A stretch of DNA of 64,000 nucleotides from Hyphomicrobiales bacterium (GCA_006844605.1 SPJN01000013.1:760-64759), one strand, 5' to 3'; numbered from the stretch's first letter, positions 18,221-34,942 are shown. Numbers and translations: made by a program. Notes: generated by a model not told the origin, from the sequence alone.

Positions 18221-19806
18221 TATTGCGTTTCGGTGATCGCGCCCGTTGGGGGGGTGCGTCAACCTTTGACATGATGGTGACAGGATTGGGACGGCGGCTT
18301 CCCGCATGGGGTGGAGCTGCCGCCCTTTTCATTTTCGCCTGCCTTGCCCTGACCAGCCCGGCACAGGCCCGGCTTGATGTCGATAAGGTGGAGCGGTCCA
18401 TCGTCCGGATTGAAGTGGGGCGTAGCTTCGGCTCAGGCTTTTTTGTGACAAATGATGGGGTGATCGCCACCAATTACCATGTCGTCGCCGGTGCCGAACG
18501 CATCATTATCCGGCCCAGTGGTGACGTCAGCGGCTATGAAGGCCGGGTGTTGTGGCAGTCCAAGCAAATGGATTTGGCGCTGTTAAGCGTGCAGGGCGTG
18601 ACGCGCCCGCCTCTGACCTTGTTCATGGGTGATCCGCAGCGTGCGTCGAATGTCAACGTGGTTGGCTTTTCTGCCAAGTGTGATGCGGCTGCGGGTGGCC
18701 GCACCTTGCATACCTGCGCCACCAGTGGCGTTATTTCGCTGTTGGAAAATGATCGTGCCCGTGCCCGCCGCGTCGTGCAATCCGATGCGGTGATCAATCG
18801 TGGCTCATCAGGCGGACCGTTGTTGGATGATTGCGGCCGTGTGGTCGGCGTTGCGGCGCAAGGCTATGGCGGTGCAGGGGGCGAGGCGCTGTATGTCGCG
18901 ATCCATACCACGTCGCTTGTAAAGTTTATGGGTAGTGACCAGCTGAAGCCGTTGGCCCTAAAGCCTGTCATGACGAAGACAACCTGTAAGACCAATGTCG
19001 CTGGCCCTGATGAGGAGGCGCGCAAACGTGCCGACAGCGCCAGCCGCAGTGCCGCTGATGCCAATCAAAAGGCACAGGATGCCTTGAACACGACCGCCAA
19101 GGCGCAGGCGCAGGCCGAAGCGGCCTCAAAAGAAGCGGAAGCTGCCACGAAAGAGGCAGAGCGGTTGAAGCAGCAATTAAAGCTTCAAGAAGAGCGTTTG
19201 GCGGCTGAACAGGCCAAACAGGAAGCCGAACGTGCGCGCCAGAAAAATGTCAATCTATCGATTGTGATCGGGGTCGGGGTGACGGTTTTGTTGACCCTGT
19301 TGACCCTTGGCTTGGCATTAAGACGGCCGCGCCAGCAATTGATTCAGGTGGTTGAACAGGTGTCGCGAACGGTGATGCCCTCAAACAGAAGTGCCGCCAA
19401 CAAACCGAATGATGCGGTGCGCCGCAAGTCAACAATTGCCCCCCCCGGCGCCCCTGCGGAACATGATCTGCTGTTGATTGTCACAAAACCCGATGGTCAC
19501 CAGTCGCAATATACTCTTGATGCTGCCAAGCTGGGCCAAACATGGTTCGGCGTCACCTTTGGCCGTCATAAGGGGCTGGTGGACCATGTGATCGAATCGC
19601 CGGAATTGTCACGTAGACATTTCCGTATTCGGTGGCAAAATCAAGGCTTTGAAATTGAAGACCTGAATTCAACAAACGGAACGTTGTTGAACGGTGTCGC
19701 GCTTTTAGCCTATAAGCCGAACAGGCTGAGGATGGAAGACGAGATCAAGCTGGGCCGCGTCAAGGCGCGCGTCAGCAAGGTCAAACACGAAACCGGAACA
19801 AAATAA
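18217..19806 (+). CDS. membrane protein: periplasmic trypsin-like serine protease (canonical triad), TM helix, cytoplasmic FHA domain
   Basis: GTG start at 18217 overlaps the upstream stop (GTGA); an alternative ATG lies at 18271. Signal peptide. 'TNYHVV' (His), 'MDLALL' (Asp), 'GSSGGPL' (Ser). Coiled-coil Ala/Glu-rich linker, TM helix 'IVIGVGVTVLLTLLTLGLAL', C-terminal FHA (…SRRHFRIRWQNQGFEIEDLNSTNGTLLNG). Confidence 0.75.
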   Translation: MILRFGDRARWGGASTFDMMVTGLGRRLPAWGGAAALFIFACLALTSPAQARLDVDKVERSIVRIEVGRSFGSGFFVTNDGVIATNYHVVAGAERIIIRPSGDVSGYEGRVLWQSKQMDLALLSVQGVTRPPLTLFMGDPQRASNVNVVGFSAKCDAAAGGRTLHTCATSGVISLLENDRARARRVVQSDAVINRGSSGGPLLDDCGRVVGVAAQGYGGAGGEALYVAIHTTSLVKFMGSDQLKPLALKPVMTKTTCKTNVAGPDEEARKRADSASRSAADANQKAQDALNTTAKAQAQAEAASKEAEAATKEAERLKQQLKLQEERLAAEQAKQEAERARQKNVNLSIVIGVGVTVLLTLLTLGLALRRPRQQLIQVVEQVSRTVMPSNRSAANKPNDAVRRKSTIAPPGAPAEHDLLLIVTKPDGHQSQYTLDAAKLGQTWFGVTFGRHKGLVDHVIESPELSRRHFRIRWQNQGFEIEDLNSTNGTLLNGVALLAYKPNRLRMEDEIKLGRVKARVSKVKHETGTK

Positions 19807-22773
19807 ATGGCTTCTGAGCATACAAATGCCCTACCGCGTGGTTATCGCATTGACGAGTATGAACTCGTCCGTGTGCTGGGGGCCGGTGGGTTTGGCATCA
19901 CCTATCTTGGGTTTGATCACAATCTTGATAAGCAGGTTGCGATCAAGGAATATTTGCCGCGTGAATTGGCAACCCGTATAGATGGCTCAACCGTTGCGCC
20001 ACATTCGTCGGGCGATCAGTCCGATTTTGAATGGGGGTTGGACCGCTTTTTGGAAGAAGCGCGGGTTTTGGCCCGGTTCGATCATCCCAATATTATCAAG
20101 GTTTATCGTTTTTTCCGTAATCACGGCACCGGTTATATCGTGATGGATTACGCGGAAGGTGAAAGCCTGTCCGCCTATTTGGGGCGTCAGGGCACCATCA
20201 CCGAACCGCAATTGCGCGGTATCTTGATGCCGTCCTTGTCGGGTCTGAATATGATCCATGCCGGCGATGTGCTGCACAGGGATATCAAGCCGGGCAATAT
20301 CATGATCCGTACCGATGGTACGCCGGTCTTGATTGACTTTGGTGCTGCCCGTCAGGCGATGAACAATAAAAGTCTGTCTGTGACGTCTATTGTGACGCCC
20401 GGCTATGCCCCGATTGAGCAATATTCCACCAAGGGCAATCAAGGCCCGTGGACGGATATTTATGCGTTGGGGGCTGTTGCCTATCGCTGTTTGATGGGCC
20501 ACACGCCTGAGGATGCGACGGACCGTATTCTTGATGATGAAATGGTGCCCGCGGTTGAAGCTGCCAAGGGCAAGGCCAGCCCGGAATTTTTGGCTGCGAT
20601 TGATGCGGCATTGGCAATACGCGAGGCTGATCGACCCCAAACGATTGCCGATTGGATCGAGATGTTCGGTGAAGTGCCCGAAAATGTCTTGTCTATCGGC
20701 GGTGGTCGCAGCCGCAGCAATGAAACCAGTCGTTTGAATGTGTCATCTGGCGAACCGAAATCCGGTGGCGGCAGCAAGACGGGCCTGTTTGTCGGGCTTG
20801 GGTTGTTGGTCGCCGCGGGGCTTGGTGCCGGTGGCTATTTCGCCATGGGCGGCTTTGGCGGTGGCGATGGTGGCAGTACAGCTGGTGGTGGGCAGGGCAC
20901 AACCGCCGCTGTGCCGCAACAGGCCACTGTGGCCTTGACCGCAGAACAGATCACAACCGTGCAGGCGCAACTCCTCGCGCTGGGCTATCGCGTTGCAAAG
21001 AACGGTGAAATGGATGCGCGCACCAAGTTGGAACTGACGCGCTTTCAAATGGAAAAGGGCTTGCCCCAATCCGGTGTTGCCGATGCGCCCACCATGCAGC
21101 GTTTGAAGGTTGAACGTGATCGCGTGGATCAAAAGGCATGGCTTGAAGCATCCGGTGGTCATACGGTCAGCGGCTATGCTGCCTATTTGAAGGAATGGTC
21201 AGACGGGAATTACCGGACGCGGGCAGAAGCGGCGATCAAACAATTGCAGGCCGATGAAGCGCGCCTGAACGAGGCTGAAAAGCGGGCTGCGCAATTGGCC
21301 AAGGATGATGATGCCTATGCCAAGGCGCAAGGCCAGCACACACTTGATGCCTATCGCGCCTATTTGAAGAATTTCCCCAAGGGACGCCATGTTGCGCAGG
21401 CAACGCAGGCGTTTGACCGCCTGAACGCGGTTCGTAAGGCCGAAGAAAAGGCCAAGCAGGATCGTGCAGAAACCACACTGCGCAAGGAGGCGCAGACCCT
21501 GCTGATCCAGATGGGGTATGATGTTGATAACCGTTCAGGCCGGGCAACAACAAAAACCAACAAGGCGGTCGAAGAATTCCGGGGCGAGGTGGGCCTGCCT
21601 GTATCGTCCAAGGTGGACCTGATCTTGTTGTCCAATATGCGCCAGGTCGCCGAAGATCGTTTGTGGGCCAAAACCAAAAAGGCCCGCAGCGCCCGCGCCT
21701 ATGAAACCTATCTCGACAGTTATCCTGATGGCCGCTATGCCGCTGAAGCACGTGACAATCTGGGTAAGGCCAAGCAGATGGCTGCAATGGCGGATGCCGA
21801 AAAAACCCTGACCCGTTCCATCCAGACAGAGCTGGGACGCCTTGGTTATAAGGTGCGGACTAATGGTGATTTTGATACGGCAACCGCAACGGCCATTGAG
21901 CTGTTTGAGCAAGAAACAGGTCGCAAGGTTACCGGCGAAATGTCAGACGAGCTGTTGGCAAATCTAAAGGCCACCAAGACACGTCCGGGTAAGGAAATGA
22001 AGATTGGCGGTATCGTCAAGGATTGCGAGGCTTGTCCGCCATTGGTTGTGGTGCCGACCGGTTCATTGACCATGACAACCAAAACAAAAAAGGGTGAACC
22101 AAGCGTCCGTAAAATTGCGATTGATACGCCCTTTGCCGTTGCGGTGGCTGAGGTGACGTTTGATGAATGGGATGCCTGCGTCGCCGCCTTTGCCTGCCAG
22201 CATAAGGGTGATCCCGGCTTTGGTAAGGGGCAGCTGCCTGTGGTTGGCGTCAGCTTTAATGACGCGCAAAATTATGTCGGCTTCCTGTCTGCCAGAACGG
22301 GCAAACCCTATCGGTTGTTAAGTGAAGCGGAATGGCAGTATACCGCTGGTGCCGGTGTCAGCAGTGCCTATGCATTTGGTGACAATGCACAGGAAATTTG
22401 CGCCTATGGCAATGTTGCGGGCAAGGAATCAGGCTTTGACTGGGGCAAGGATGGCTGTACCGACCAACACGGCCAGACAACCGCCCCTGTGAAATCATAT
22501 AAGCCGAACAAATTCGGTGTCTATGACATGCATGGTAATGCTGCCGAATGGGTGGCTGATTGCTGGCACGATGATTATGAAGGCGCGCCGACAAACCGTA
22601 AATCATGGGAAAGCGGCGGTGATTGTAACTGGCGCATCCTGCGTGGCGGTTCGTGGCGCAACGCGGTAGATTACAGCACGCTTGACCGCCGCTCCAAAAT
22701 GTTCGGCGTGGTGCGGGCCAATACAAACGGTTTCCGTGTTGTGCGTGACTTGGTGGACGGAGAAGGGCAATGA
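19807..22773 (+). CDS. Hanks-type Ser/Thr protein kinase with TM helix, three periplasmic peptidoglycan-binding (PG_binding_1-like) repeats and a C-terminal FGE-sulfatase (SUMF1-like) domain
   Basis: 988 aa. The start follows the upstream stop directly. Kinase motifs 'LGAGGFGITY', 'AIKEY', 'HRDIKPGNIM', 'DFGAAR', 'APIEQ'. TM helix 'LFVGLGLLVAAGLGAGGYFAM'. Three 'LG(Y)…G.D…T' PG-binding-like repeats alternate with 'Y..YL…P.GRY' repeats. The C-terminus has 'GDPGFGKGQLPVVGVSFNDAQNY…EAEWQYTAGAG…YDMHGNAAEWV…RGGSW…GFRVVRD', typical of FGE-sulfatase. Confidence 0.85.
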   Translation: MASEHTNALPRGYRIDEYELVRVLGAGGFGITYLGFDHNLDKQVAIKEYLPRELATRIDGSTVAPHSSGDQSDFEWGLDRFLEEARVLARFDHPNIIKVYRFFRNHGTGYIVMDYAEGESLSAYLGRQGTITEPQLRGILMPSLSGLNMIHAGDVLHRDIKPGNIMIRTDGTPVLIDFGAARQAMNNKSLSVTSIVTPGYAPIEQYSTKGNQGPWTDIYALGAVAYRCLMGHTPEDATDRILDDEMVPAVEAAKGKASPEFLAAIDAALAIREADRPQTIADWIEMFGEVPENVLSIGGGRSRSNETSRLNVSSGEPKSGGGSKTGLFVGLGLLVAAGLGAGGYFAMGGFGGGDGGSTAGGGQGTTAAVPQQATVALTAEQITTVQAQLLALGYRVAKNGEMDARTKLELTRFQMEKGLPQSGVADAPTMQRLKVERDRVDQKAWLEASGGHTVSGYAAYLKEWSDGNYRTRAEAAIKQLQADEARLNEAEKRAAQLAKDDDAYAKAQGQHTLDAYRAYLKNFPKGRHVAQATQAFDRLNAVRKAEEKAKQDRAETTLRKEAQTLLIQMGYDVDNRSGRATTKTNKAVEEFRGEVGLPVSSKVDLILLSNMRQVAEDRLWAKTKKARSARAYETYLDSYPDGRYAAEARDNLGKAKQMAAMADAEKTLTRSIQTELGRLGYKVRTNGDFDTATATAIELFEQETGRKVTGEMSDELLANLKATKTRPGKEMKIGGIVKDCEACPPLVVVPTGSLTMTTKTKKGEPSVRKIAIDTPFAVAVAEVTFDEWDACVAAFACQHKGDPGFGKGQLPVVGVSFNDAQNYVGFLSARTGKPYRLLSEAEWQYTAGAGVSSAYAFGDNAQEICAYGNVAGKESGFDWGKDGCTDQHGQTTAPVKSYKPNKFGVYDMHGNAAEWVADCWHDDYEGAPTNRKSWESGGDCNWRILRGGSWRNAVDYSTLDRRSKMFGVVRANTNGFRVVRDLVDGEGQ

Positions 22774-23054
22774 TGCGCTCATACCGCATAGGCCGGGGGG
22801 CAACGTGCGAGATCATTGTTGATCATAAAAGCGTATCGCGCCTTCATGCGGAATTATCCGTGTCGGCGGATGGACGATATTATCTGACCGATTGCAATTC
22901 ACGTGCAGGATCGTTCAAACAGGATAATGGCGAATGGGTGCGGGTACGACAGTCATTTGTTGAACCGACCCAGCCGTTGAAGTTGGGAGAGCAGGAGTTA
23001 ACGGCGGAAGAGGCGATGGAGCGTCGGTCCGCCAAAATATCACATAAGGTTTAG
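22770..23054 (+). CDS. FHA-domain protein (stand-alone)
   Basis: 94 aa. 'IGRGATCEIIVDHKSVSRLHAELSV…YYLTDCNSRAGSF'. The start overlaps the kinase stop (ATGA). Confidence 0.7.
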   Translation: MMRSYRIGRGATCEIIVDHKSVSRLHAELSVSADGRYYLTDCNSRAGSFKQDNGEWVRVRQSFVEPTQPLKLGEQELTAEEAMERRSAKISHKV

Positions 23055-23092
23055 TGTGATACAAAGGGGGAATGCCAGACGGGGCTTAAATT

Positions 23093-24493
23093 ATGGCTGG
23101 TTTTTGGAAACGGGATAAAAACAAGAATAAAAAGGACAAGGGGCAAAGCAAGGTTGTTTTGCCCGATATGCCTGTGAGCGTGGCCAACCCCAAAACAGGC
23201 TTGATGGGCGCGGTTGAGCCGCTGAAACCGTTGGTTGGTGACGAGGAAGTGTCCCGCCGGTCAGAGGATGATACCGTCCAGCTTGACGTTGAAACAAAAA
23301 TGGGGATGCGCACCACCGGCACGCCCAGCCCCCGTGAAATCGATACGCCCGCTGATGATAGCGAAGAAACAATGGTGCTGGGTCGTGATGCGACGGCAGA
23401 AGCGCCCCCATCAGACGACCCTTCTGCGGGGCCAGAAAACAATCTCCCAGAAAATAACGCGGTAGAGCCAACATCGTCGGATGAAGAAACAATGGTGCTG
23501 GGGCGTGCGCCAAGCGCACCGGTGGCACCAACCACGCCGATAGAGCCAAGCGTATCTGATAACGACAGCCCGCCGATGGCTGAACCGGAAGCAGAACCGG
23601 AAACAGCAGCAACCGGTCAGGCGTCGGATGAAGAAATCACCAAGCCTGACACAGTGATCAGACCATCAAGGTCGATTAACGAGGAGCCGCTATCCCGCGC
23701 CCAGACTCTGGGCCCGAAGGTGATGGCGGATGCTGACAAATATGCCGATATATTGCCCGTCGGTGATGATGACGAAGACCCAGCGCCTGACCCAATGGTT
23801 GATGCGCACCCCGCCGCTGATCCAGCACAGGACGTAGACGCTGACGCTGATGAAGACGCTGCTGAAGGCGCAGACGCCGATACAGAAGACGCTGTAGAAG
23901 CGGACCCTGATGTCGAAAAAGATGGCGCGCTTGATAAAGAGGTAGGCGTCGAAGTCGATGACGCAGAGAACATCACCCCCGTCAGTGCCGTGAGGAAATC
24001 CGGTACGCAGGCTGAGGGTGAAGAAGAAGCAACCCGGATATTCGGTGCGCGCCGCAAGATGCAAAAACCTGTCGCACCGTTATTGGATGTAAAGGTTGCG
24101 GGCGCATCGAAGCAGACTGACCCGAACGAGGCGATGGCAGACCCGATTGTGGGCTGGTTGGTAATTGTTGACGGACCGGGCGTGGGAAACTGCCTGCCGT
24201 TGGGCTATGGCACCAACCCTGTTGGGCGTGCCCCTGAACTGCGCGTGGCGTTGACATTTGGGGATTCGCAAGTGTCCCGCGGCACCCACGCCACAGTGAT
24301 TTATGATCCCCGCGGGCGGGATTTTTATGTTCAGCATGGCGGTGGCACCAATCTGACATATCTTGATGACAAGCCCTTGCTTGAGCCAAAGCAGCTCAAC
24401 CCTCGTGATCGCATTACGATCGGTGACACGGTTCTGATGTTGGTCCCCCTATGTGACAAAAACTTTGATTGGCAGGATCTGAATGATGAGTGA
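23093..24493 (+). CDS. acidic low-complexity protein with C-terminal FHA domain
   Basis: 466 aa. D/E/P/A-rich N-terminal 370 aa containing a duplicated 'EETMVLGR' motif. C-terminal FHA ('…ELRVALTFGDSQVSRGTHATVIYD…NLTYLDDKPL'). Confidence 0.7.
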   Translation: MAGFWKRDKNKNKKDKGQSKVVLPDMPVSVANPKTGLMGAVEPLKPLVGDEEVSRRSEDDTVQLDVETKMGMRTTGTPSPREIDTPADDSEETMVLGRDATAEAPPSDDPSAGPENNLPENNAVEPTSSDEETMVLGRAPSAPVAPTTPIEPSVSDNDSPPMAEPEAEPETAATGQASDEEITKPDTVIRPSRSINEEPLSRAQTLGPKVMADADKYADILPVGDDDEDPAPDPMVDAHPAADPAQDVDADADEDAAEGADADTEDAVEADPDVEKDGALDKEVGVEVDDAENITPVSAVRKSGTQAEGEEEATRIFGARRKMQKPVAPLLDVKVAGASKQTDPNEAMADPIVGWLVIVDGPGVGNCLPLGYGTNPVGRAPELRVALTFGDSQVSRGTHATVIYDPRGRDFYVQHGGGTNLTYLDDKPLLEPKQLNPRDRITIGDTVLMLVPLCDKNFDWQDLNDE

Positions 24494-25463
24494 ATCAGCA
24501 AAAACAAGCTATCAGGATGATCGCGTCTCTGCGGACCAAATGCAGGGTGGCCGGGATTATCAGGAAGATGATTACAAAGTGTCATGCATCAGCGCCCCCG
24601 CCGACGAAACGTCAGGCGAGTTGTTGATGGTATTGGCTGACGGTATGGGCGGCCATGCCGGCGGGGCCGAAGCGTCTGACATCGCCGTGCGCTATTTCAC
24701 GGATCATTTCATTGGATCAGATGGCGCGGTAAATGATCGGTTTATGGCGGCGCTTGACGCGGCCAATAATGGCCTGGAACAGGAAGTAGAAAAAAACCCT
24801 GACCTTGAAGGTATGGGCTGCACTTTGGTTGGCCTGCACCTGACCGATCAGGGGGCGCGCTGGATCAGCGTGGGGGATTCCCCGCTTTATCTGGTGTCAT
24901 CAGGCCGGATTGTGCAAATCAATGACGATCATTCAATGGCCCCCGTATTGGCGCAATTCGTCAAGGAAGGGCGCATGACAGCGGAGGAGGCGTCGAAGGA
25001 TCCGCGCCGCAACGCCCTTCGGTCTGCCGTTGTGGGCGAGGAGCTAACCCTGATTGATCTGCCCCATGATCCCTTGCCGATCCATAAGGGTGATGTGTTG
25101 GTGTTGGCCTCTGACGGGTTGCAAACACTGCCCAATGCCAAGATCAATGACATTGTGGTCAAGCATGGCGATAAACCCGTTGATCAACTGGTTGAAAAAC
25201 TGTTGCAGGCCGTCACGGATGCGGGTCGTCGGCGGCAGGATAACACAACGGTAATGGTGTACCGTGCTGATCGGCTGCTGGGCGAGGAGCCGCGCTCAGA
25301 CGATTTGACGATTGATCCCAATTCCTTGGAAGAGGAAATGGATGCCATCATGAATGCGGGCAGCGCAGGCGGTGCAGACGAACAATTGCCTCTTGCCCTG
25401 ATTGCAGCTGGTATTGTGGCCATTGTTGGCTTGGGCGTAGTGGCCTATATGGCGCTGATGTAG
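24483..25463 (+). CDS. PP2C-family Ser/Thr phosphatase with C-terminal TM anchor
   Basis: 'LADGMGGHAGG', 'GCTLVGLHL', 'VGDSPLYLV', 'LASDGL' metal-binding motifs. C-terminal TM helix 'LALIAAGIVAIVGLGVVAYMALM'. The start overlaps the upstream stop. Confidence 0.85.
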   Translation: MMSESAKTSYQDDRVSADQMQGGRDYQEDDYKVSCISAPADETSGELLMVLADGMGGHAGGAEASDIAVRYFTDHFIGSDGAVNDRFMAALDAANNGLEQEVEKNPDLEGMGCTLVGLHLTDQGARWISVGDSPLYLVSSGRIVQINDDHSMAPVLAQFVKEGRMTAEEASKDPRRNALRSAVVGEELTLIDLPHDPLPIHKGDVLVLASDGLQTLPNAKINDIVVKHGDKPVDQLVEKLLQAVTDAGRRRQDNTTVMVYRADRLLGEEPRSDDLTIDPNSLEEEMDAIMNAGSAGGADEQLPLALIAAGIVAIVGLGVVAYMALM

Positions 25464-25583
25464 GTGCCCTAAAAAATCACCTATCGGGCGACAGATTTTT
25501 GTCGCCGCTCCGTTTAATGAATATGACCTACAGCTTTTGGGGTGTGGGATCATGTCTCTAGGATTATTGAAACGGAGCATAAA

Positions 25584-26144
25584 ATGACCCGGAAAATACG
25601 TTTTGACAGCTTGCCTGCGTCCAGTCGCCTTTTGGCTGGTGCTGTGGCCGGTATTGTGGCGCTGACAGTCACAGGGGCGGTGGTTGCTGATTCCCACGGG
25701 GAAAAGGCCAAGACACGCGCAGCGCAACAGTTTAGCGCGATGGATGCCAATGGTGATGGCAAGCTGACGCGAGAGGAAATGAAGGCCCATCATAAGGCCC
25801 GTCATGCAAAAAAGGACACCAACGGTGATGGCAAAATTAGCCGGGATGAGTTCAAAAAAGCGGGCAAAAGCGAATGGGCGGCGCGCGCAGATCGCATGTT
25901 TGACCATATGGACCGCGACGGCGACGGTTTTTTGACCGACGCTGACAAGCCGAAGGACAAGGATATGGACAAGCGCCGTGCTGCCATGTTCGACAAGATG
26001 GACAAGGATGGTGACGGTGCCATCAGCCGGGACGAAGCAGAATCTGCCCGCATGTTCATGCGTCATCATATGAAGAAAAAACGCGGTCATGATTACGATG
26101 ATCATGATGATGACGATCACAGCGGTCATTACGGGCATCGCTAA
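25584..26144 (+). CDS. secreted EF-hand calcium-binding protein with His-rich C-terminus
   Basis: Trimmed to the ATG at 25584 (Shine-Dalgarno 'acggag'). Signal peptide, then four 'D.(N/D)GDG.(L/I)(T/S).(D/E)E' EF-hand loops. C-terminal 'HDYDDHDDDDHSGHYGH'. Confidence 0.7.
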   Translation: MTRKIRFDSLPASSRLLAGAVAGIVALTVTGAVVADSHGEKAKTRAAQQFSAMDANGDGKLTREEMKAHHKARHAKKDTNGDGKISRDEFKKAGKSEWAARADRMFDHMDRDGDGFLTDADKPKDKDMDKRRAAMFDKMDKDGDGAISRDEAESARMFMRHHMKKKRGHDYDDHDDDDHSGHYGHR

Positions 26145-26186: not shown

Positions 26187-26765
26187 ATGGCAACACAATA
26201 TGATCAGGATGCGCGCTTGATGCGCCAGGTTGCGGCGGGGGATAAACGCGCCTGCCGCACCTTGCTTGATCTCTATTTGGCATCCACTTGGCGTGTTGCC
26301 TTGGCCTGTACCGGACGGGCTGACCTTGCCGATGATTTGACACAAGAAGCATTGGCGCGGCTTTGGCAGGTGGCCCCCAAATGGCAGGCGCGGGCGCGGG
26401 TCTCTACATGGCTTTATCGTGTGGTAAAGAATCTGTGGATTGATCATCTGCGCAAACAGCGACCCGGCGGTGAAGCCGTGGACGACATAGCAGAACTGGC
26501 GGATGATCGTGCCGATCCGCATGACCGGTATCAGGCGTTGCAGGCAGGCGCGACGATGGCACAGGCGGTTGCGCAATTACCGCCACGCCAGCGGATTGCG
26601 GTCACACTATATTATTTTGAAGACCTGTCGATTGATGACGGGGCGCAGGTGATGGACATTGGGGCTGATGCATTCCAATCACTGATTGCGCGGGCCCGTA
26701 AGGGGTTGAAGGTGATGCTGGCCGATCACCGGCAGGATTTGATGGAGGGGCTGACGGATGAGTGA
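26187..26765 (+). CDS. ECF (sigma-70 family group 4) RNA polymerase sigma factor
   Basis: 192 aa. Region 2 'WLYRVVKNLWIDHLRK'. Region 4 'LPPRQRIAVTLYYFEDLSIDDGAQVMDI'. Confidence 0.8.
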   Translation: MATQYDQDARLMRQVAAGDKRACRTLLDLYLASTWRVALACTGRADLADDLTQEALARLWQVAPKWQARARVSTWLYRVVKNLWIDHLRKQRPGGEAVDDIAELADDRADPHDRYQALQAGATMAQAVAQLPPRQRIAVTLYYFEDLSIDDGAQVMDIGADAFQSLIARARKGLKVMLADHRQDLMEGLTDE

Positions 26766-27096
26766 TCAAAATATGGACGATCAAACCTTGGACAAATTAT
26801 TGGCGGCTGCGCCGCGCCCATCGCCTGATGCGGCGCTGATGGGCCGGGTGATGGCCGATTTTGATGTGGCCCAAAATGCCATTGGCTGGCGTGATTTGGC
26901 GCAGATATTCTGGCCCTTTGGTCCGTTGTGGCAACCGTTGACCGCGCTGGCGCTGGTCGCGGTGATGGGGGTGGGGCTGGCACCCGCCGATATTGCGGTT
27001 TCTGATGATGCGCTTTTATTGGCGCAGGCAGATTTTGGCACGCTTGTGTTGGGGCAGGATTATGCTGCGATCCTTGAGGGGGGAGGAAACCAATGA
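26758..27096 (+). CDS. putative anti-sigma factor (single TM helix)
   Basis: 112 aa. Its start overlaps the sigma-factor stop. One TM helix 'LTALALVAVMGVGL'. Called from its position after the ECF sigma gene only. Confidence 0.4.
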   Translation: MSDQNMDDQTLDKLLAAAPRPSPDAALMGRVMADFDVAQNAIGWRDLAQIFWPFGPLWQPLTALALVAVMGVGLAPADIAVSDDALLLAQADFGTLVLGQDYAAILEGGGNQ

Positions 27097-27626
27097 CCCG
27101 TAATCGTTTGTTGGCGCTGGCATTGTTTGTTTCGGTTGCCGTAAATATTTTTGCCGCGTCGGTATTTTTGGGGCCAGCCTTCCGGCAGGGGCCATATCTT
27201 GGCCCAATGACCGGGGAAAGGCATTTGGGAAGCCACGGGGAAAGGCATGGGGAAAGGCATGGGGAAAGGCATGGGCTGGACCTGCATCAGCTTGAACATT
27301 TGTCTGACGCCTCGCAACAAAAAGTGCGCGCCATTTGGCGGGATAGCCGCCGCGACCTTCATCGTGAGTTTCGTGCCTCGATAAAGGCGCGCCGTGGCTT
27401 GACCGAAGCACTGACCGCCGAAACTTATGATGCGCAGGCGGTGATGGCGGCGCAGGCGGCGCTTGATGCGGCGATGGGGCGGGTGCGGGCGCTGACTAAT
27501 CAGGCGGTCTTGGATAGTGCCAGCGTTCTGTCGGATGAGGAACGGGAAGAATTTTTCAAACGTGGTTTCCGGCCCCGGCATGGCAAACAGTCATCATCAG
27601 ATGATGATAGAGATGATGATGATTAG
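27093..27626 (+). CDS. periplasmic Spy/CpxP/ZraP-family (LTXXQ-type) metal-stress protein, His-rich
   Basis: 177 aa. Signal peptide, 'HGERHGERHGERHG' repeat, LTXXQ-like 'LSDASQQ' and 'LSDEERE', acidic tail. Confidence 0.5.
   Translation: MTRNRLLALALFVSVAVNIFAASVFLGPAFRQGPYLGPMTGERHLGSHGERHGERHGERHGLDLHQLEHLSDASQQKVRAIWRDSRRDLHREFRASIKARRGLTEALTAETYDAQAVMAAQAALDAAMGRVRALTNQAVLDSASVLSDEEREEFFKRGFRPRHGKQSSSDDDRDDDD
27237..27272 (+). repeat. 12-bp tandem repeat x3 (ggggaaaggcat) encoding (GERH)n
   Basis: Read directly from the sequence. A degenerate fourth copy lies just upstream. In-frame and coding. Confidence 0.9.
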
Positions 27627-27644
27627 CGGGTCATCAGATAATGA

Positions 27645-29285
27645 TCAGATGATCTGCCACTGCCCGGTGGCAAGGGCATAGGCCCCGATCAGGGCATTGG
27701 CGCAGGCGTGGGCGATTATCGCATCGCTGACGTTTTTCCGCCGCAAATACAGCAGCCCGAAACACAGGCCTGCAAGGCCCGCCAATATCCAATCGCCGTG
27801 TAATGCGGCGAACAGGCCGCTGCTGACCACAAGCGCGACAAGTCTTGTTGCCAGTGAATTGCGGGTGTTCAGGCGCGCCAGAATATAGCCACGGAAAAAC
27901 AGTTCTTCCACCACCGGAATGATAAGGCTGGTGCCGATCAGGCGCGCAGTGACCCACAGGGTAAATGCGGCAGCAGACAGGGCACCTAAGCGGTCGGTCA
28001 GTATATCGTCGGCAGGGGTGTTGCGCAGAGCCACGATCCAAACCACACCGATCACCAAGCCCGTTGCGATGGCAAGCGGATCGGGGGTGAGCTTGATGCC
28101 GCGCAGCACCGGCCAAAACAGCCACAATGCAGCAGCCACAACCGCAATCCGCGCAGGATAGGCCAGTGCCGGTACTTCAATGACTGCACCTGCGATCAAA
28201 GATGTTGTCATCAATATGATGAATGGCAGGATATAGGCCGCAAGCGGGTCTTGGCGGAAAGGGGTGGTCGATGCTTGGGGCGCGGGATCAGTTTGCTTGA
28301 TAAACCATGTCGATTTTTCAACCAGCACAATAATGCTGATATTCAGGATCAGGAACATGATCCACCCGGCATAGGAATGAAACCCGTCGATCGCCAGTTC
28401 CGGCGAAATATCTGCGCCGACAATGATCAACAGGGCAACCCGCACGGTGTTTAGAAGATAGCTTAGAATGATGGCGATGGGGATCAGCATGGCAAACCGC
28501 GCGACCCGTAGATGGTTGCTCATCAAAAACAGATACGACCCCAATAGGGTGGTGGTCAGGATCAGGCCCTGAACGCCTGAACAGGTGTGACCGACAAAAA
28601 CGCGGAACCCTTCTACGCCCATCACGAAATCCTTGTCCCCATATAGCGGGGTGTAGCCAAGGATGGTCAACAGCGCAGCAACCCCATCAAATGTGGTGCG
28701 GGTAACAAGCGGGATTTGCCATGATGCTTGCAGCGTATAAAACCCGATCAATGGCGATATGGTGGCAATGATCACGAACCAGAACGGTTTTCGTTTCGCA
28801 GCTTCAAGCCATTGTGCAGGCGTGGCCAGAATGAACACAACACCGATCACGGCGCATAAGGCACCGCCCAGCCACATGGCAAGGCCATATGATTGTATCA
28901 ATGCCGGATCAGAAACAGCCAACAGGCCGGGCAGTGACAACAGCAATACCCCGCCGATATGAACCGCCAGCCATGTGGGCGACAGGCTTGATGCCAAGCG
29001 GGCCTGCCGCATTGCGTGGGTGATTTGATGGGTTTGATAAAGGCAAAGCAACAACAGCGCCACCGCGCCGCCAAATATCATTTCATAGAAAAAATTCGTC
29101 AGCGTGCAGAATGTCGTGTCGGATGCCAAAAACCGGCACATATCGACCGGCATATCAGGGTGCCCGGCGACCGGACCTGAAATATAGATAATGAATAACA
29201 GTCCCAATTCCACGGCAAACAGACAGGTCAGTGCTGTGACCTGCCAAATGAGTGAGGTTGGAATAGGCCGTGCCGCGTGGGTCAT
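27645..29285 (-). CDS. exosortase fused to CPBP (CAAX-type) intramembrane protease, XrtE-like, VPEID-CTERM system
   Basis: 546 aa polytopic membrane protein. Exosortase signatures 'GHTCSGVQGL' (catalytic Cys), 'LLNTVRVALL' (NxxR), 'FHSYAGWIMF'. C-terminal CPBP motifs 'VVEELFFRGYI', 'FAALHG', 'AHACANA'. Three VPEIS/APEVS-CTERM mini-genes lie nearby. Confidence 0.75.
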   Translation of the reverse strand: MTHAARPIPTSLIWQVTALTCLFAVELGLLFIIYISGPVAGHPDMPVDMCRFLASDTTFCTLTNFFYEMIFGGAVALLLLCLYQTHQITHAMRQARLASSLSPTWLAVHIGGVLLLSLPGLLAVSDPALIQSYGLAMWLGGALCAVIGVVFILATPAQWLEAAKRKPFWFVIIATISPLIGFYTLQASWQIPLVTRTTFDGVAALLTILGYTPLYGDKDFVMGVEGFRVFVGHTCSGVQGLILTTTLLGSYLFLMSNHLRVARFAMLIPIAIILSYLLNTVRVALLIIVGADISPELAIDGFHSYAGWIMFLILNISIIVLVEKSTWFIKQTDPAPQASTTPFRQDPLAAYILPFIILMTTSLIAGAVIEVPALAYPARIAVVAAALWLFWPVLRGIKLTPDPLAIATGLVIGVVWIVALRNTPADDILTDRLGALSAAAFTLWVTARLIGTSLIIPVVEELFFRGYILARLNTRNSLATRLVALVVSSGLFAALHGDWILAGLAGLCFGLLYLRRKNVSDAIIAHACANALIGAYALATGQWQII

Positions 29286-29567
29286 GAATACTCAATCAAA
29301 ATGTTCAGATATCTTGCCAACCCAATCGCGCATCATCAATGCAGATCAGGCAGGCGACAGTGCCATAGTCATTGGATAGTTGGAAAGCAAAATCAGCCTT
29401 GGACAGATATGGCAATGTGGTGGTCCTCCGCCCGCGCCCCCTACCGCCACACAACCCCAAAATGCATTGCAGTTGTGCGCTGGTCAAACACGCAATTGAC
29501 CGCTTGTCAGGGTGTTTGCGCACGTCTATGGTCAAACGGTAATGATAGGGGCTAAAGGAAAATTATC

Positions 29568-29735
29568 ATGAAAATCATTCTATCCGCCGCAACATTGGTT
29601 GCTGTTTCAACAGGCAGTGCCTTTGCAATTTCCGGCGGCAGCGTCCCCGAAATTTCATCAGTGGGCGGCGTCGCTGCAATGGCCATTGTGGGCGGCATTG
29701 CCGTTTATCTGTGGGAACGCAAAAACCGCAAATAG
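29568..29735 (+). CDS. VPEID-CTERM-type exosortase sorting-signal mini-protein (55 aa)
   Basis: Not in the ORF track because it is shorter than 60 aa. MKIILSAATLVAVSTGSAFAISGGSVPEISSVGGVAAMAIVGGIAVYLWERKNRK: signal peptide, VPEIS motif, TM helix, RKNRK tail. Shine-Dalgarno 'aaagga'. Confidence 0.65.
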   Translation: MKIILSAATLVAVSTGSAFAISGGSVPEISSVGGVAAMAIVGGIAVYLWERKNRK

Positions 29736-29776
29736 ACCATCTATGTATTTGATATGGACGCAAAGGCTTTCGTTTC

Positions 29777-30667
29777 GTGAGTGATTTTTTTGCGTCCATA
29801 ATCGAACTGCTGGTTTCGTTCGCACCACTGATTATTGCTTTCGCTGGCGCTTATGCGTTGGAAGTGTGGCGTCCGTGGCGGCGGCGAGATGAGCGGTTCT
29901 GGCTGCGTGCTGCCCAGGCAACAATCCTTTATGCGGTTGGTGTTTGGCTTGTCGTGGTTCTGTTTCCCGGATCGCTGCAAGAGCTGTCGGATAACAATGC
30001 CCAATCGGGGTTGGGTTTGCTGCCCCTTTTGGGGGTGGAGCCGCTGAATTGGTCACTGCCAGTCTTGTTCGTGGTGACGTTTTGCTTGCGGGACTTGCTG
30101 TTGTACACCACGCATTGGACCACGCATAAGTTCCCGTTTTTGTGGCGTATGCACCGGGTGCATCATTCCGATATCGAGATTGACGCATCAACCGCGCTGC
30201 GCGATCACCCACTTGAAATAATCTATGGGTTGTCGGTGCATATCATTGTGTTTTTGGCGCTGGGCATTCCGGGCACCGCCTTGGGGCCGACGATTGCCGT
30301 TTCGCTGGCATTGGGGGTTTGGGTGCATACAAACACGCCGTCCCCCCAATGGATGAAATATGTGGCCTTGGTCTTGGTGACGCCTGATTATCATCGACGT
30401 CACCACAGCGCTGCGATGGCAGACTTCAATTGTAATTTGGGCAATTCATTGACGATCTGGGACCGCTTGTTCGGGACCGTGCATGCGACCTTCAAAGGTG
30501 TGTCGACAGAACAAAATCAAGATGTCAGTTTCGGCTGCCCTGTCCCTGACGAGCAGCGAGATACGTTGATTGGTATGTTGCTTGATCCGTTCCAGCGCGA
30601 GCTGACCGAACAGGAAATAGCCGCGACAACATCTGCTGCCAAACCTGATAGCAGCCAGCACTCATAA
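29777..30667 (+). CDS. fatty-acid hydroxylase / sterol-desaturase-family membrane protein
   Basis: 296 aa. Histidine boxes 'HWTTH', 'HRVHHSD', 'HRRHHS'. Confidence 0.7.
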   Translation: MSDFFASIIELLVSFAPLIIAFAGAYALEVWRPWRRRDERFWLRAAQATILYAVGVWLVVVLFPGSLQELSDNNAQSGLGLLPLLGVEPLNWSLPVLFVVTFCLRDLLLYTTHWTTHKFPFLWRMHRVHHSDIEIDASTALRDHPLEIIYGLSVHIIVFLALGIPGTALGPTIAVSLALGVWVHTNTPSPQWMKYVALVLVTPDYHRRHHSAAMADFNCNLGNSLTIWDRLFGTVHATFKGVSTEQNQDVSFGCPVPDEQRDTLIGMLLDPFQRELTEQEIAATTSAAKPDSSQHS

Positions 30668-30700
30668 CCAAATCGCTAAATGGGTAGCGCCACCGTCTGT

Positions 30701-31546
30701 TCAGTCGCGCTGATCTTGCTGCGTTGGTGGCGCTGGCGGCGTTACAGGGTTGGGCAATATCGGGTCTGCCAACAGGCCCACGATTGCATTATACCGTTCA
30801 GGCGGCTGGCCAACGCCCACTGTGAAGTGGGCTGGCGCGGCGGGCGCAAATCCCTGCACAAGTGGGTTGGCACTACCAAACAGATGATCCCAAATGGTCA
30901 GGACAGTGCCGTAATTGGTCATTTGATCCTGCCCGGCGTCGCTGTGATGGCGTTTGTGATATTCCGGCGTCACAATCAGGCGTGACAGGGGCCGCAAAAA
31001 ACGCGGGGTCACAATATTGCTGTGGACATAGAAATTGATCACCAGCAAGACACCCTCTGCCCAGATAAAGCAGATCAGCGGCAGGCCGCTGACAACAATA
31101 ACGCCCAAGGTCAGCGCGGTGTTGATCAGAACCTCAACCGGGTGAAACCGCAAAGCGGTTGAGGTGTCATAGCTGGTGTCAGAATGGTGGGCGCGATGGA
31201 TGCGCCACAGCACGGGCACCTGATGAAACAGGCGATGCGAAAAATAGACCGCCAGATCCGTTACCAGCAACGTGATGATGAAACTGACTGCCAAGGGCAT
31301 CTGGGCAAAAAAGTCGGCACTGATCTGCCATTGCAGCGCCAGTGCAGCGGCCTGTGATTGGGTCGGCAATAAGTTCACGGTCAGAATGCTGGCCGTTAAA
31401 TAAAGCGTCGTAGACAATAACAGCCGATAGGCATAGGGGGCCTGCGCCTTTTCAAAGGGCGCAAACAGTTCGGCCAAACGAAACAGGGCCAAACACAGGA
31501 TCAGCGGACCAAAGGCGATAAGCGTATCTGTCAGCTGGTCAATCAT
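30701..31546 (-). CDS. fatty-acid hydroxylase / sterol-desaturase-family membrane protein (paralog)
   Basis: 281 aa. 'HRLFH', 'HRAHHSD', 'HKRHHS'. Convergent with the paralog at 29777. Confidence 0.7.
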   Translation of the reverse strand: MIDQLTDTLIAFGPLILCLALFRLAELFAPFEKAQAPYAYRLLLSTTLYLTASILTVNLLPTQSQAAALALQWQISADFFAQMPLAVSFIITLLVTDLAVYFSHRLFHQVPVLWRIHRAHHSDTSYDTSTALRFHPVEVLINTALTLGVIVVSGLPLICFIWAEGVLLVINFYVHSNIVTPRFLRPLSRLIVTPEYHKRHHSDAGQDQMTNYGTVLTIWDHLFGSANPLVQGFAPAAPAHFTVGVGQPPERYNAIVGLLADPILPNPVTPPAPPTQQDQRD

Positions 31547-31640
31547 ATTGTAACCACCATAAATCCCAGTTTTTTAACCGCCAAAAAAGAAAGGCACCGA
31601 TGTGATCGATGCCCTTCGTCAGTTTGATAAGGCAACCGCC

Positions 31641-31808
31641 CTATTTGCGGTTCTTGCGATCCCAGAAATAGGCAGCAATGCCGCCAATAACTGCCATGGC
31701 CGCCAAACCACCTGTGGCTGACACTTCGGGTGCGCCGATTGGCGCAAAGCCCGCGAGAGCGGGACTTGTTGCGGTTGCAAACAGTGCGGCTGCAATTATC
31801 TTTTTCAT
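31641..31808 (-). CDS. VPEID-CTERM-type sorting-signal mini-protein (55 aa)
   Basis: Not in the ORF track. MKKIIAAALFATATSPALAGFAPIGAPEVSATGGLAAMAVIGGIAAYFWDRKNRK. The track ORF 31543..31827 on this strand is in the wrong frame. Confidence 0.65.
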   Translation of the reverse strand: MKKIIAAALFATATSPALAGFAPIGAPEVSATGGLAAMAVIGGIAAYFWDRKNRK

Positions 31809-31937
31809 TTCGGCCCCTCTTATACAATTAAACTTATGTTTTTGAGTATAGGGTGACGTTAGGCCCGGTCAAATAAAAAGACGGCCCGCATGGAGCCGCC
31901 TTTCGCAGAATTGTCATGGATTCGTTAGGCAACAGCC

Positions 31938-32111
31938 CTATTTGCGGTTCTTGCGATCCCAGAAATAGGCAGCAATGCCGCCAACAACGGCCATGGCCGC
32001 CAAACCGCCTGTGGCTGACACTTCCGGTGCACCGATTGGGATACGAACTTTCCCGGCAAAGGCAGGGCCTGTCGCCATTATAAATAGTGCGGCTGTATAG
32101 AGCTTTTTCAT
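31938..32111 (-). CDS. VPEID-CTERM-type sorting-signal mini-protein (57 aa)
   Basis: Internal start of the track ORF 31938..32171 (MKKLYTAALFIMATGPAFAGKVRIPIGAPEVSATGGLAAMAVVGGIAAYFWDRKNRK). Near-identical tandem copy of the gene at 31641. Confidence 0.65.
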   Translation of the reverse strand: MKKLYTAALFIMATGPAFAGKVRIPIGAPEVSATGGLAAMAVVGGIAAYFWDRKNRK

Positions 32112-32167
32112 ATTGTTCCCCAATATATTAACCTTACATGCCCAATATAGGACCGCGGAGGGACGGG

Positions 32168-32203
32168 TCAAATAAAAAGACGCCGGGGTGCCCCCCGACG
32201 CCT
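32168..32203 (-). terminator. rho-independent terminator downstream of acnA
   Basis: On the minus strand: a GC stem (cgtcgggg / ccccggcg, one wobble), loop 'ggca', then 'tcttttta'. A related element repeats at about 31869-31902 after the duplicated mini-gene. Confidence 0.45.
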
Positions 32204-32227
32204 TCGTGATTTGATCGGTGTGTCTGC

Positions 32228-34942
32228 CTATTGCGCCAGATCCCGCAGCACGTAATGCAGGATGCCGCCATTGCGGAAATAGGCGACCTCGTTCCCTGTA
32301 TCAATGCGCAGCAGCAGCGGCACTTTCTTGGTCTTGCCATTCTTATAGGTGATCTGTGCCTCTACCGTCATGCGGGGTTTAATGCCCTTGGCAAGGCCGG
32401 GCAGGGTGATGGTTTCAGACCCGTCCATTTTCAGCGTTTTGCGGCTGGTGCCTTCTTCGAACTGTAGGGGCAGGACGCCCATCCCAACAAGGTTGGAACG
32501 GTGAATCCGTTCAAAGCTTTCGGCGATCACGGCCTTCACCCCCAGCAGGATCGTGCCCTTGGCCGCCCAATCGCGGGACGACCCGGTGCCATATTCCTTG
32601 CCGGCCACAACCACCAGCGGGGTGCCTGCGGTTTGATATGCCATCGCCGCGTCATAGATTGACATCTGTTTGCCACTGGGTTGATGAACGGTCACGCCGC
32701 CTTCGACGCCGGGGACCATTTCGTTTTTGATGCGGATATTGGCAAAGGTGCCGCGCATCATCACCTGATGATTGCCGCGCCGTGACCCATATGAGTTAAA
32801 GTCGGCTTGCGCCACCTTGTTTTTGGTCAGATAGGCACCGGCGGGGCTGTCCTTTTTGATGACGCCTGCGGGGCTGATATGATCGGTGGTGATGGAATCA
32901 CCAAACAGGCCCAACACGCGGGCATCTTCAACATCCGTCAGCTTGTCCACATCCATCGTCATGCCATCGAAATAGGGCGGGTTTTGCACATAGGTTGACT
33001 TGTCATCGAAGTCATATGTCAGCCCCTCGCCCGCCTTGATCTTGCGCCAGCCCGCGTCACCGGTGAACACATCGGCATAGCGTTTCTTGAACGCTGCGCG
33101 CGTTACGGTCTTGCGGACGGTTTGGGTAATCTCAGCATTTGATGGCCAAATATCCTTCAAATAAACCGGGTTGCCCTTGCGGTCCTGCCCGATGGGATCG
33201 GTGGTCAGGTTCAGCTTGGTCGTTCCGGCAAGGGCATAGGCAACAACCAAGGGCGGGGAGGCAAGATAGTTCGCCTTGACCTGTTGGTTGACACGGCCTT
33301 CAAAATTGCGATTGCCTGACAGCACCGATGCGACGGCCAAATCTTCCTTGGCCACGGTTTTGCTGATGGGCGGCGGCAGGGGGCCTGAATTGCCGATACA
33401 GGTCGTGCAGCCATAGCCAACCACGTTAAAGCCCAGCTTATTCAATTCCCTTTGCAGGCCGGCGGCTTGCAGATAGTCAGACACAACTTGCGACCCCGGC
33501 GCGAGGGAGGTTTTGACCCACGGCTTCACCTTCATACCCAGCCTGGCGGCATTGCGCGCCAGCAGCCCCGCGCCAATCATGACAGATGGGTTGGAGGTAT
33601 TGGTGCAACTGGTGATGGCGGCGATCACAACATCGCCATGCCCAAGGTCGTAATTTTCGCCCCGCACCTTAACGCGGCGGTCAGCTTCGTCCGCCTTGCC
33701 GAATTCATTGGCGAGGGTGTCGGCAAAGTTTTGCGCAACACCGCTAAGGGCCACGCGGTCCTGTGGCCGTTTGGGGCCTGCCAATGACGGCTCTACCGTA
33801 GACATATCAAGTTCAAGTGTGTCGGTGAACACCGGGTCCTTTGACCGCTTGGTGCGCCACATGCCCTGTTTTTTGGCATAGGCTTCGGTCAGGGCAACCC
33901 GTGACGGGCTGCGGCCTGTTGATTTCAGGTAATTGATGGTTTCGTCATCAATGGGGAAGAACCCACATGTGGCGCCATATTCGGGGGCCATATTGGCCAC
34001 GGTGGCCCGGTCAGCCAGCGACAGCTGGTCAAGGCCGGGGCCGTAAAATTCAACGAACTTGCCGACCACGCCCTTATTGCGCAGCATTTCAGTGATGGTT
34101 AGCACAAGGTCAGTGGCGGTGTTGCCTTCCCTGATCTTGCCCGTCAGCTTGAAGCCGACAACTTCAGGTAACAGCATGGAAATCGGCTGGCCCAGCATTG
34201 CGGCCTCAGCCTCAATCCCGCCAACACCCCAGCCCAGCACGGCAAGGCCGTTGACCATGGTGGTGTGGCTATCGGTGCCGACCAGCGTGTCGGGATAGGC
34301 GACATCTACCTTGTTGCCCTTTTCATCCAGCCCCTTACCGGTCCAGACGGTTTGGGCCAGATATTCCAGATTGACCTGATGGCAGATGCCGGTGCCCGGC
34401 GGCACAACGCGGAAATTGTCAAACGCCTGTTGGCCCCAGCGCAGAAACTTATAGCGTTCATCATTACGTGAATATTCCAGCGATACATTATCCTTGAACG
34501 CCTGTGGCGTGCCGAAATGATCAACCATCACTGAATGGTCGATCACCAAATCGACGGGGGCCAGCGGGTTGATCTTTTTCGGGTTTGCGCCAAGCGCAGT
34601 CATTGCGCCGCGCATGGCAGCAAGGTCAACCACGGCGGGCACGCCGGTAAAATCCTGCATCAGCACGCGGGCGGGGCGATAGGCAATCTCCTTCGGGTTC
34701 TTTTTACGCTTCAACCATGTGCCCAGCGCCTTGATGTCCTTTTCCTTGACCGTGTCGCCATCTTCAAAGCGCAGCAGGTTTTCAAGGATGACTTTTAACG
34801 AGTAGGGCAGGCGATCAAAGTCGAGGCCCAATGCCTTTGCTGCCTTGGGAACCGAATAATAGGTATAGGTCTTGGCCCCGACTTTCAGCCGTGATTTGGT
34901 TTTCAGCGTGTCTTGGCCAAGTGTCTGTACTGGTGCAGGCAT
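32228..34942 (-). CDS. acnA: aconitate hydratase A
   Basis: 904 aa. Full-length aconitase A with the characteristic Fe-S cluster ligand and substrate-binding regions. Confidence 0.95.

Follow-up and report, generated by a model that had tools for sequence, protein, structure and literature searches.

Positions 27645 to 32111 of the 64,000-nucleotide stretch of Hyphomicrobiales DNA analysed here (GCA_006844605.1, SPJN01000013.1:760-64759; hereafter the window) contain six genes: one for a large membrane enzyme of the exosortase E (XrtE) type, two of the FA_hydroxylase family, and three for mini-proteins of 55–57 amino acids (aa), which we call mini1, mini2 and mini3. Taken together, the evidence makes it quite likely that this locus is a VPEID-CTERM/XrtE sorting system with three dedicated substrates which are almost pure sorting signals. 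The enzyme and the mini-proteins had been pointed out in an earlier note made from the sequence alone; the two FA_hydroxylase genes lying between the mini-genes were absent from that description. The coordinates of all features are collected in Table 1.

Judged by its sequence, the 546-residue protein is a full-length XrtE in which both the exosortase Cys-Arg-His set and the CPBP Glu/His set are intact. It scores 390.9 bits (E 1e-116) on TIGR04162, the profile for the exosortase E/protease of the VPEID-CTERM system (curated cut-off 150), with residues 49–546 aligned to positions 24–516 of a profile of 516 positions, so that the profile check proposed for the enzyme came out as expected. Exosortase_EpsH (PF09721) covers residues 77–320 and Rce1-like (PF02517) residues 444–532, the latter within a CPBP/Rce1-like glutamic intramembrane protease half of approximately residues 350–546, which is also matched by TIGR03008 (113.6 bits). 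The motifs which the earlier note had listed for an exosortase–CPBP fusion (CSG, NxxR and HxxxGW; EExxxR, FxxxH and HxxxN) can all be read in the translation, as CSG (C235), NTVR (N279, R282) and HSYAGW (H303..W308) in the exosortase half and as EELFFR (E460, E461, R465), FAALH (F492, H496) and HACAN (H526, N530) in the CPBP half. When the protein was aligned with 19 homologues of 24–39% identity, C235-S-G, N279, R282, H303..G307, E460, E461, R465, F492, H526 and N530 were invariant, and W308 and H496 were at least 90% conserved.

An AlphaFold2 model of XrtE is all-helical, with a mean predicted local distance difference test score (pLDDT) of 82.9 and values above 90 in the CPBP half. A Foldseek comparison of this model with the PDB was uninformative (best E 1.4, TM-scores of 0.25 or less), and a phmmer search of the PDB sequences with XrtE gave no match at E≤1. 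A protein more than 90% identical, from a metagenome-assembled genome (MAG) labelled ‘Alphaproteobacteria bacterium’, carries the NCBI name ‘exosortase E/protease, VPEID-CTERM system’, and the closest match in a collection of species-representative genomes is 44% identical. The XrtA model TIGR03109 gave only 26.3 bits against a cut-off of 208, and the myxosortase models 24–34 bits against cut-offs of 75–250 (34.3 against 100 for NF040914, Mrt_core).

The three mini-proteins share a common plan. Each begins with MK(K), followed by 14–16 hydrophobic residues, AFA or ALA, and then 8–11 residues ending in VPE or APE; these are followed by a Gly/Ala-rich hydrophobic stretch of ∼20 residues, W(E/D)RKNRK and the stop codon. 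All three have the tripartite C-terminal signal xPE(I/V/M)x, hydrophobic helix and basic cluster, and in all three the N-terminal pattern is that of a classical Sec-type signal peptide. The predicted mature parts are ISGGSVPE for mini1, GFAPIGAPE for mini2 and GKVRIPIGAPE for mini3, and there is no Cys in any of the mini-proteins.

A custom hidden Markov model (HMM) of the sorting domain was derived from 80 independent XrtE loci, which supplied 85 domains; the window and a closely similar sister MAG (see below) were excluded. On this model mini2, mini3 and mini1 score 34.8, 33.9 and 32.2 bits, respectively, with E values from 6e-10 to 4e-9, and the next-best of the 1,227 stop-to-stop segments in the window scores 6.8 bits. 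Translation and profile (32–35 bits) together bear out the claim of three 55–57-aa open reading frames (ORFs) with a (V/A)PE(I/V)S motif, a helix and an RKNRK tail. The 85 domains include VPEID (40), VPEIS (10), APEID (7) and VPEVD (3) variants, and every motif position of the mini-proteins falls within the variation of the set. The mini-protein of the sister MAG carries a precomputed ‘PF27847 VPEID-CTERM (weak)’ match.

The earlier note had made its reading depend on the small ORFs being conserved, and their divergence fits this expectation. Over the 34 codons of the sorting domain, mini2 and mini3 differ by four synonymous and two non-synonymous changes, mini2 and the sister-MAG copy by two and one, and the third pair among these sequences by six and two, so that most differences are synonymous; equivalent genes occur at 127 of the 160 XrtE loci described below. 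The signal-peptide and mature parts, on the other hand, vary freely among these three sequences, and natural protein variants of the mini-proteins show changes only in the N-terminal part and at I/V positions of the helix. The exact sequences of all three are present in a public protein collection, where they are unnamed; the description of them as unannotated holds for the naming but not for the sequences themselves. The longest ORF for mini3 has 77 aa and starts from TTG; the ATG at 32111 has a Shine–Dalgarno-like GGGGA. Open antisense frames lie opposite the Ala/Gly-rich mini ORFs. These sequence comparisons show the mini-genes to be three real and conserved genes for substrates of the XrtE class.

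The signals around the mini-genes suggest that they are probably transcribed independently, and strongly. Shine–Dalgarno-like sequences precede mini1 (AAGGA) and mini2 (GAGGGG) as well as mini3, and the promoters assigned to mini2 and mini3 are the two best sigma-70-like sites within 27000–32600. These two genes form a tandem duplication of a whole cassette (terminator, promoter, ribosome-binding site and ORF), the copies being 76% identical with a period of ∼297 bp, where the sister MAG has a single copy; the alignment places the U-run of the mini3 terminator so that it runs into the −35 box of the mini2 promoter. The hairpin directly after the mini1 stop codon has a folding energy of −24.0 kcal/mol (z −4.39), and none of 200 shuffled sequences folds as well. 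Because it has no U-tail, it may serve attenuation or translational coupling and not termination of the classical kind.

Table 1. Features of the XrtE locus and its immediate flanks, with positions counted from the first nucleotide of the window
Feature	Position	Strand	Basis or remark
XrtE, exosortase/CPBP-protease fusion, 546 aa, polytopic membrane protein	27645-29285	-	TIGR04162, PF09721, PF02517
mini1, 55 aa, VPEIS-CTERM pre-protein, MKIILSAATLVAVSTGSAFA + ISGGSVPE + ISSVGGVAAMAIVGGIAVYLW ERKNRK	29568-29735	+	translation, custom HMM
mini2, 55 aa, APEVS-CTERM pre-protein, MKKIIAAALFATATSPALA + GFAPIGAPE + VSATGGLAAMAVIGGIAAYFW DRKNRK	31641-31808	-	translation, custom HMM
mini3, 57 aa, APEVS-CTERM pre-protein, MKKLYTAALFIMATGPAFA + GKVRIPIGAPE + VSATGGLAAMAVVGGIAAYFW DRKNRK	31938-32111	-	translation, custom HMM
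FA-hydroxylase-1, sterol desaturase/fatty-acid hydroxylase superfamily, 296 aa	29777-30667	+	PF04116, 95.8 bits
FA-hydroxylase-2, 281 aa, convergent with FA-hydroxylase-1	30701-31546	-	PF04116, 105.9 bits
Hairpin directly after mini1 stop, enclosing GTG start (29777) of FA-hydroxylase-1	29745-29810	+	RNA fold
Tandem duplication of mini cassette	31630-32182	-	copies 31630-31883 and 31927-32182
Sigma-70-type promoter of mini3, TTGACC-16-TATATT, 10/12	32144-32171	-	directly after acnA terminator (32176-32205)
Intrinsic terminator of mini3, 12-bp stem and U-run	31876-31904	-	−23.7 kcal/mol for 66-nt stretch, z −2.2
Sigma-70-type promoter of mini2, TTGACC-16-TATACT, 10/12	31845-31872	-	
Intrinsic terminator of mini2, 13-bp stem then UUUCUUUUUU	31589-31617	-	z −4.3
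1,116-bp segment (mini1 and first 245 codons of FA-hydroxylase-1) missing from sister MAG	29396-30511	.	
acnA flank	32228-34942	-	acnA terminator 32176-32205
Operon of ECF sigma factor, putative anti-sigma factor (112 aa) and Metal_resist/Spy-like periplasmic protein	26187-27626	+	convergent with XrtE

The sister MAG (GCA_039768095.1; locus L081, 6528–7898), whose flanks are 98% identical to the window, gives a view of the recent history of the locus. It retains a 3′ remnant of FA-hydroxylase-1, from which it follows that the difference at 29396–30511 is a deletion in the sister MAG, and it has one mini-gene in place of the 297-bp tandem pair. Its FA-hydroxylase-2 has a frameshift after approximately residue 258 and is called as 340 aa, which is read-through past the frameshift and no real extension. 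These differences indicate that the mini copy number and the second hydroxylase vary within the population.

A survey covered 80 XrtE loci from species-representative genomes and 80 from metagenomes. An ORF with a sorting domain at its C-terminus (xPE, hydrophobic helix and basic tail) adjoins XrtE at 72 of the 80 genome loci when sought with a regular expression, and at 127 of all 160 loci by HMM. At 63 of these 127 loci, no more than 15 residues separate PE from the signal-peptidase site, as placed by a crude rule. Short substrates are the norm for the XrtE family and not special to the window; the proposal that the mini-proteins are minimal exosortase substrates is accurate, given their 8–11 mature residues, but it describes a family-wide trait. 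The three substrate genes of the window lie within 2.9 kb of XrtE, and mature parts of paralogues within one locus share no sequence, either here or elsewhere. The assignment to the XrtE/VPEID-CTERM system was likewise sound, whereas the system ranges more widely than the marine alphaproteobacteria named for it: XrtE proteins of Cellvibrionales, Acidobacteriota, Gemmataceae and soil metagenomes score 198–465 bits on TIGR04162 and have VPE-type mini-genes adjacent.

The survey also brought out two further kinds of substrate. In a Rhodobacterales XrtE clade (L014-L018, L022-L024, L034 and L041), VPEID-CTERM proteins of 54–59 aa have no signal peptide, and their genes lie immediately downstream of XrtE in convergent orientation (at L017, for instance, 9543-9719). 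Their N-termini are rich in aromatic residues (MWWDSWRIFF..., MFDWFWNGWY...), lead into a Gly/Ser/Thr-rich linker, and would need to cross the membrane without cleavage of a Sec signal. A second class (L007-L009, L029, L030, L035, L036, L043 and L049) has a Cys pair, C-x4-6-C, immediately ahead of a variant signal, VPEIS-ALEGTAA.

The two embedded FA_hydroxylase proteins are both well above the PF04116 gathering score of 31 bits and are 31–32% identical to each other. Their His boxes are complete, with H104, H108, H117, H120, H121, H175, H197, H200 and H201 invariant in the hydroxylase alignment. The best-scoring curated family is OlsE, the ornithine-lipid hydroxylase, which has the same PF04116 fold and full His boxes; however, the scores on NF052566 (68.3 bits for FA-hydroxylase-1 and 89 bits for FA-hydroxylase-2) are far under the equivalog cut-off of 475, and an identity as OlsE was rejected.

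A related hydroxylase gene was found beside XrtE or the mini-genes, usually abutting, at 8 of the 80 genome loci and 8 of the 80 metagenome loci, and these loci are spread over several phyla and, in the XrtE tree, over no fewer than five distinct lineages. FA-hydroxylase-1 scores 147 bits with the XrtE-adjacent hydroxylase of one such locus (L001), compared with 132 bits for its best database match, and in a neighbour-joining tree all 17 XrtE-linked hydroxylases stand apart from 70 database homologues. The association extends to the type of substrate. Ultra-short substrates are found at 13 of the 14 hydroxylase-linked loci with a detected substrate, compared with 50 of 113 elsewhere (Fisher p=5e-4), and multi-copy substrates at 8 of 14 compared with 12 of 113 (p=1.6e-4). 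A profile search made from the hydroxylase side led to Hyphococcus sp., where a hydroxylase, three mini-genes for 53–55 aa and XrtE lie side by side; overall, the profile of XrtE-linked hydroxylases led to an XrtE neighbour in one of three informative look-ups. None of the six best single-sequence homologues of FA-hydroxylase-2 has an XrtE neighbour, a result of little weight, as the word-index search missed closer XrtE-linked hydroxylases. On our reading, the hydroxylase is a recurrent accessory gene, linked to XrtE well above chance, and neither a dedicated nor an obligatory partner.

It might be argued that the FA_hydroxylase genes are unrelated neighbours of the system, present by coincidence. 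This is possible, if rather unlikely. The adjacency at 16 of 160 loci across lineages and phyla, usually as abutting genes, speaks against coincidence, as do the mutual best matches and common grouping of the linked hydroxylases, their significant tie to substrate type, and the independent recovery of the Hyphococcus sp. module; in favour of it are that 90% of the examined XrtE loci have no such gene in their flanks, that members of the group occur without XrtE nearby, and that the sister strain has lost one of the two copies. One member of the hydroxylase group in Idiomarina abyssalis (L171 4373-5804) lies downstream of an ABC transporter with no XrtE nearby, and overlaps a CDP-alcohol phosphatidyltransferase gene by 8 nt, a hint that substrates of the group may be of the phospholipid type. 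In a literature search for exosortases together with hydroxylases of this superfamily, none of the papers listed mentioned exosortase.

How might such a system work? Published work describes the Cys/Arg/His triad, EpsH–CAAX fusions and lipid attachment that depends on ArtA (10.1101/2023.06.07.544157; PMC1569441), and by analogy with sortases, PEP-CTERM exosortases and the archaeosortase ArtA the following sequence of events can be proposed. The mini pre-proteins would be exported via Sec and cleaved by signal peptidase I after AFA or ALA, leaving the peptide retained in the inner membrane by its C-terminal helix and RKNRK tail. Cys235 of XrtE would then attack at or just after (V/A)PE, releasing helix and tail, and the remaining 8–11-residue peptide would be held as an acyl-enzyme until its transfer to an acceptor in the envelope or to water. 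Trimming or clearance of the released membrane helix may fall to the fused CPBP domain. From their gene linkage, both FA_hydroxylase enzymes would be accessory, most likely modifying a system-associated membrane lipid, be it the acceptor or its surroundings. A lipid acceptor for the mini peptides is a guess, and the most attractive one because of the hydroxylase linkage and the precedent of ArtA.

Several observations weigh against this explanation. The mini-proteins fall short of the curated VPEID-CTERM profile TIGR04161, the check that the earlier note had put forward for them: against a cut-off of 33 bits mini1 scores 15.1 and mini3 13.8, and mini2 gives no match. Three canonical Rhodobacterales substrates score 37.7–60.8 bits, while six mini-proteins of other hydroxylase-linked loci, together with that of the sister MAG, score 0–31.6 bits; falling short of TIGR04161 is a trait of the whole substrate class and not of the window alone. 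The signal peptides were assigned on sequence pattern only. A mature part of 8–11 residues is hardly a cargo at all, so that the anchoring of surface proteins is not obviously applicable, and the loss of mini1 and FA-hydroxylase-1 from the sister strain means that both are dispensable. As regards the hydroxylases, bootstrap support for an exclusive XrtE-linked group is 21/100 in the distance tree, and three high-scoring members of the group (P0066, P0189 and P0214) have no XrtE within 4–5 kb. No paper on XrtE, VPEID-CTERM or exosortase E was found in the searchable literature, and we know of no processing step that has been demonstrated for any XrtE.

On another reading, small peptides, and not sorted proteins, are what the locus makes, with the 8–11-residue peptides as its end product. 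XrtE would then either join the peptide by transpeptidation onto an amine-bearing membrane lipid, giving a ribosomal peptidolipid tailored by the FA_hydroxylase enzymes, or release it free. We regard this as unlikely. The mature peptide sequences are not conserved, even between paralogues, the hydroxylase is missing from ∼90% of the loci viewed and is found away from XrtE elsewhere, and the support is purely contextual. That support includes the shortness of the mature parts, with about half of XrtE loci ultra-short; the multiple copies of the mini-genes and their strong promoters; a gene of a lipid-enzyme family at ∼10% of loci, tied to the ultra-short type; and the overlap with a CDP-alcohol phosphatidyltransferase gene in Idiomarina, which points to lipid head-group chemistry. 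The lipid attachment that depends on ArtA provides a precedent (10.1101/2023.06.07.544157). In its most developed form, and to our minds an improbable one, a recurrent XrtE sub-type would make a ribosomally encoded ...VPE oligopeptide, joined by XrtE to a membrane lipid, the hydroxylase tailoring or preparing that lipid, and there would be no protein anchoring. Such a sub-type, to which the window would belong, would combine multi-copy genes for pre-peptides of ∼5–11 mature residues with XrtE and a particular FA_hydroxylase-family enzyme, and would range over Alpha- and Gammaproteobacteria, Acidobacteriota and soil metagenomes.

We consider it very unlikely that the Rce1-like CPBP domain cuts the mini-proteins in the manner of a myxosortase, with the exosortase half structural or devoted to another target. 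CPBP enzymes are established as C-terminal sorting proteases (PMC11980579; 10.1101/2023.06.07.544157), and the CPBP domain is the best-modelled part of XrtE (pLDDT >90) with invariant motifs, but the exosortase Cys, Arg and His are equally invariant. Myxosortase-type signals have an invariant Cys, which the mini-proteins lack, the myxosortase models stay far under their cut-offs on XrtE, and a PE motif abutting the helix is a hallmark of exosortases (10.1101/2023.06.07.544157). Finally, that the small ORFs arose by chance or are what decay has left of longer substrate genes, as their shortness, Ala/Gly-rich composition, open antisense frames and low TIGR04161 scores might suggest, is effectively refuted by profile E values of ∼1e-9 with no other match in the window, substitutions biased to synonymous ones, a ribosome-binding site for each gene with promoters and terminators for mini2 and mini3, and the equivalent genes at other loci.

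The sorting-system explanation can also be set beside known systems. With XrtE/VPEID-CTERM systems (TIGR04162, TIGR04161, PF27847) the locus has in common the fusion architecture, the conserved catalytic residues with a score 2.6 times the cut-off, and the adjacent short substrates with their tripartite C-terminus of xPE, helix and basic tail, including the W-E/D-R motif. It differs in its VPEIS/APEVS signals with an RKNRK tail and scores of 0–15 bits on TIGR04161, in having three substrate copies where one is usual, and in the two embedded FA_hydroxylase genes. The PEP-CTERM/exosortase A system (XrtA, EpsH family), known from bacteria that make exopolysaccharide (EPS) and form flocs, has a homologous exosortase core with Cys-Arg-His and a sorting signal in which a PE-containing motif abuts a transmembrane helix and a basic tail. 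There, however, the CPBP protein is separate (TIGR03008) and the substrates are dozens of large Ser/Thr-rich proteins, whereas the window has no EPS locus, the CPBP domain is fused in XrtE, and the substrates are few and almost without a mature part.

Archaeosortase ArtA of Haloferax volcanii, which acts on PGF-CTERM proteins, belongs to a homologous enzyme family and serves as a model for possible XrtE action. For no other member has a coupling of lipid attachment to the removal of the C-terminal helix been shown (10.1101/2023.06.07.544157). ArtA differs from XrtE in being archaeal, in its large S-layer glycoprotein substrates, in its motif and in lacking a CPBP fusion. The myxosortases (MrtC/MrtX, MrtJ and MrtS) share with the C-terminal half of XrtE the CPBP/Rce1-like glutamic protease superfamily and its motifs, and are set apart by the low scores of their models and the Cys requirement of their signals.

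The ECF (extracytoplasmic function) sigma operon, in which the Metal_resist/Spy-like protein contains a HGERHGERHGERHG repeat, ends with its stop codon 18 bp from that of XrtE. It was considered as a part of the system and rejected: it is kept only in the sister MAG, and because its conservation is restricted in this way it is probably unrelated to XrtE. Farther out, positions 16457–26144 of the window hold a signalling cluster comprising a trypsin-like/FHA protein, a Ser/Thr kinase with PG_binding_1 and FGE-sulfatase domains, two FHA proteins, a PP2C phosphatase and an EF-hand protein, with Pfam calls taken from the 98%-identical sister locus. No Rfam family was matched in a scan of 27000–33000. 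The G+C fraction is 0.51–0.53 over 29000–32000, the XrtE/mini/hydroxylase block, and 0.55–0.59 in the flanks, a dip which fits the patchy and probably horizontal spread of XrtE loci.

The locus adds one more member to the known XrtE/VPEID-CTERM systems, and its association with accessory genes is of modest interest. It illustrates that signals of this flavour escape the curated VPEID-CTERM model and that gene length cut-offs hide substrates. To our knowledge exosortase E systems have not been the subject of experimental study. In the lipid hydroxylase that recurs beside XrtE there is a lead, not yet a finding, on the acceptor to which exosortases attach their substrates. With substrates reduced to a signal peptide, 8–11 residues and the sorting signal, the locus itself offers a convenient minimal test case for this attachment, its products being of a size that allows direct mass spectrometry of the adduct at the ...VPE end.

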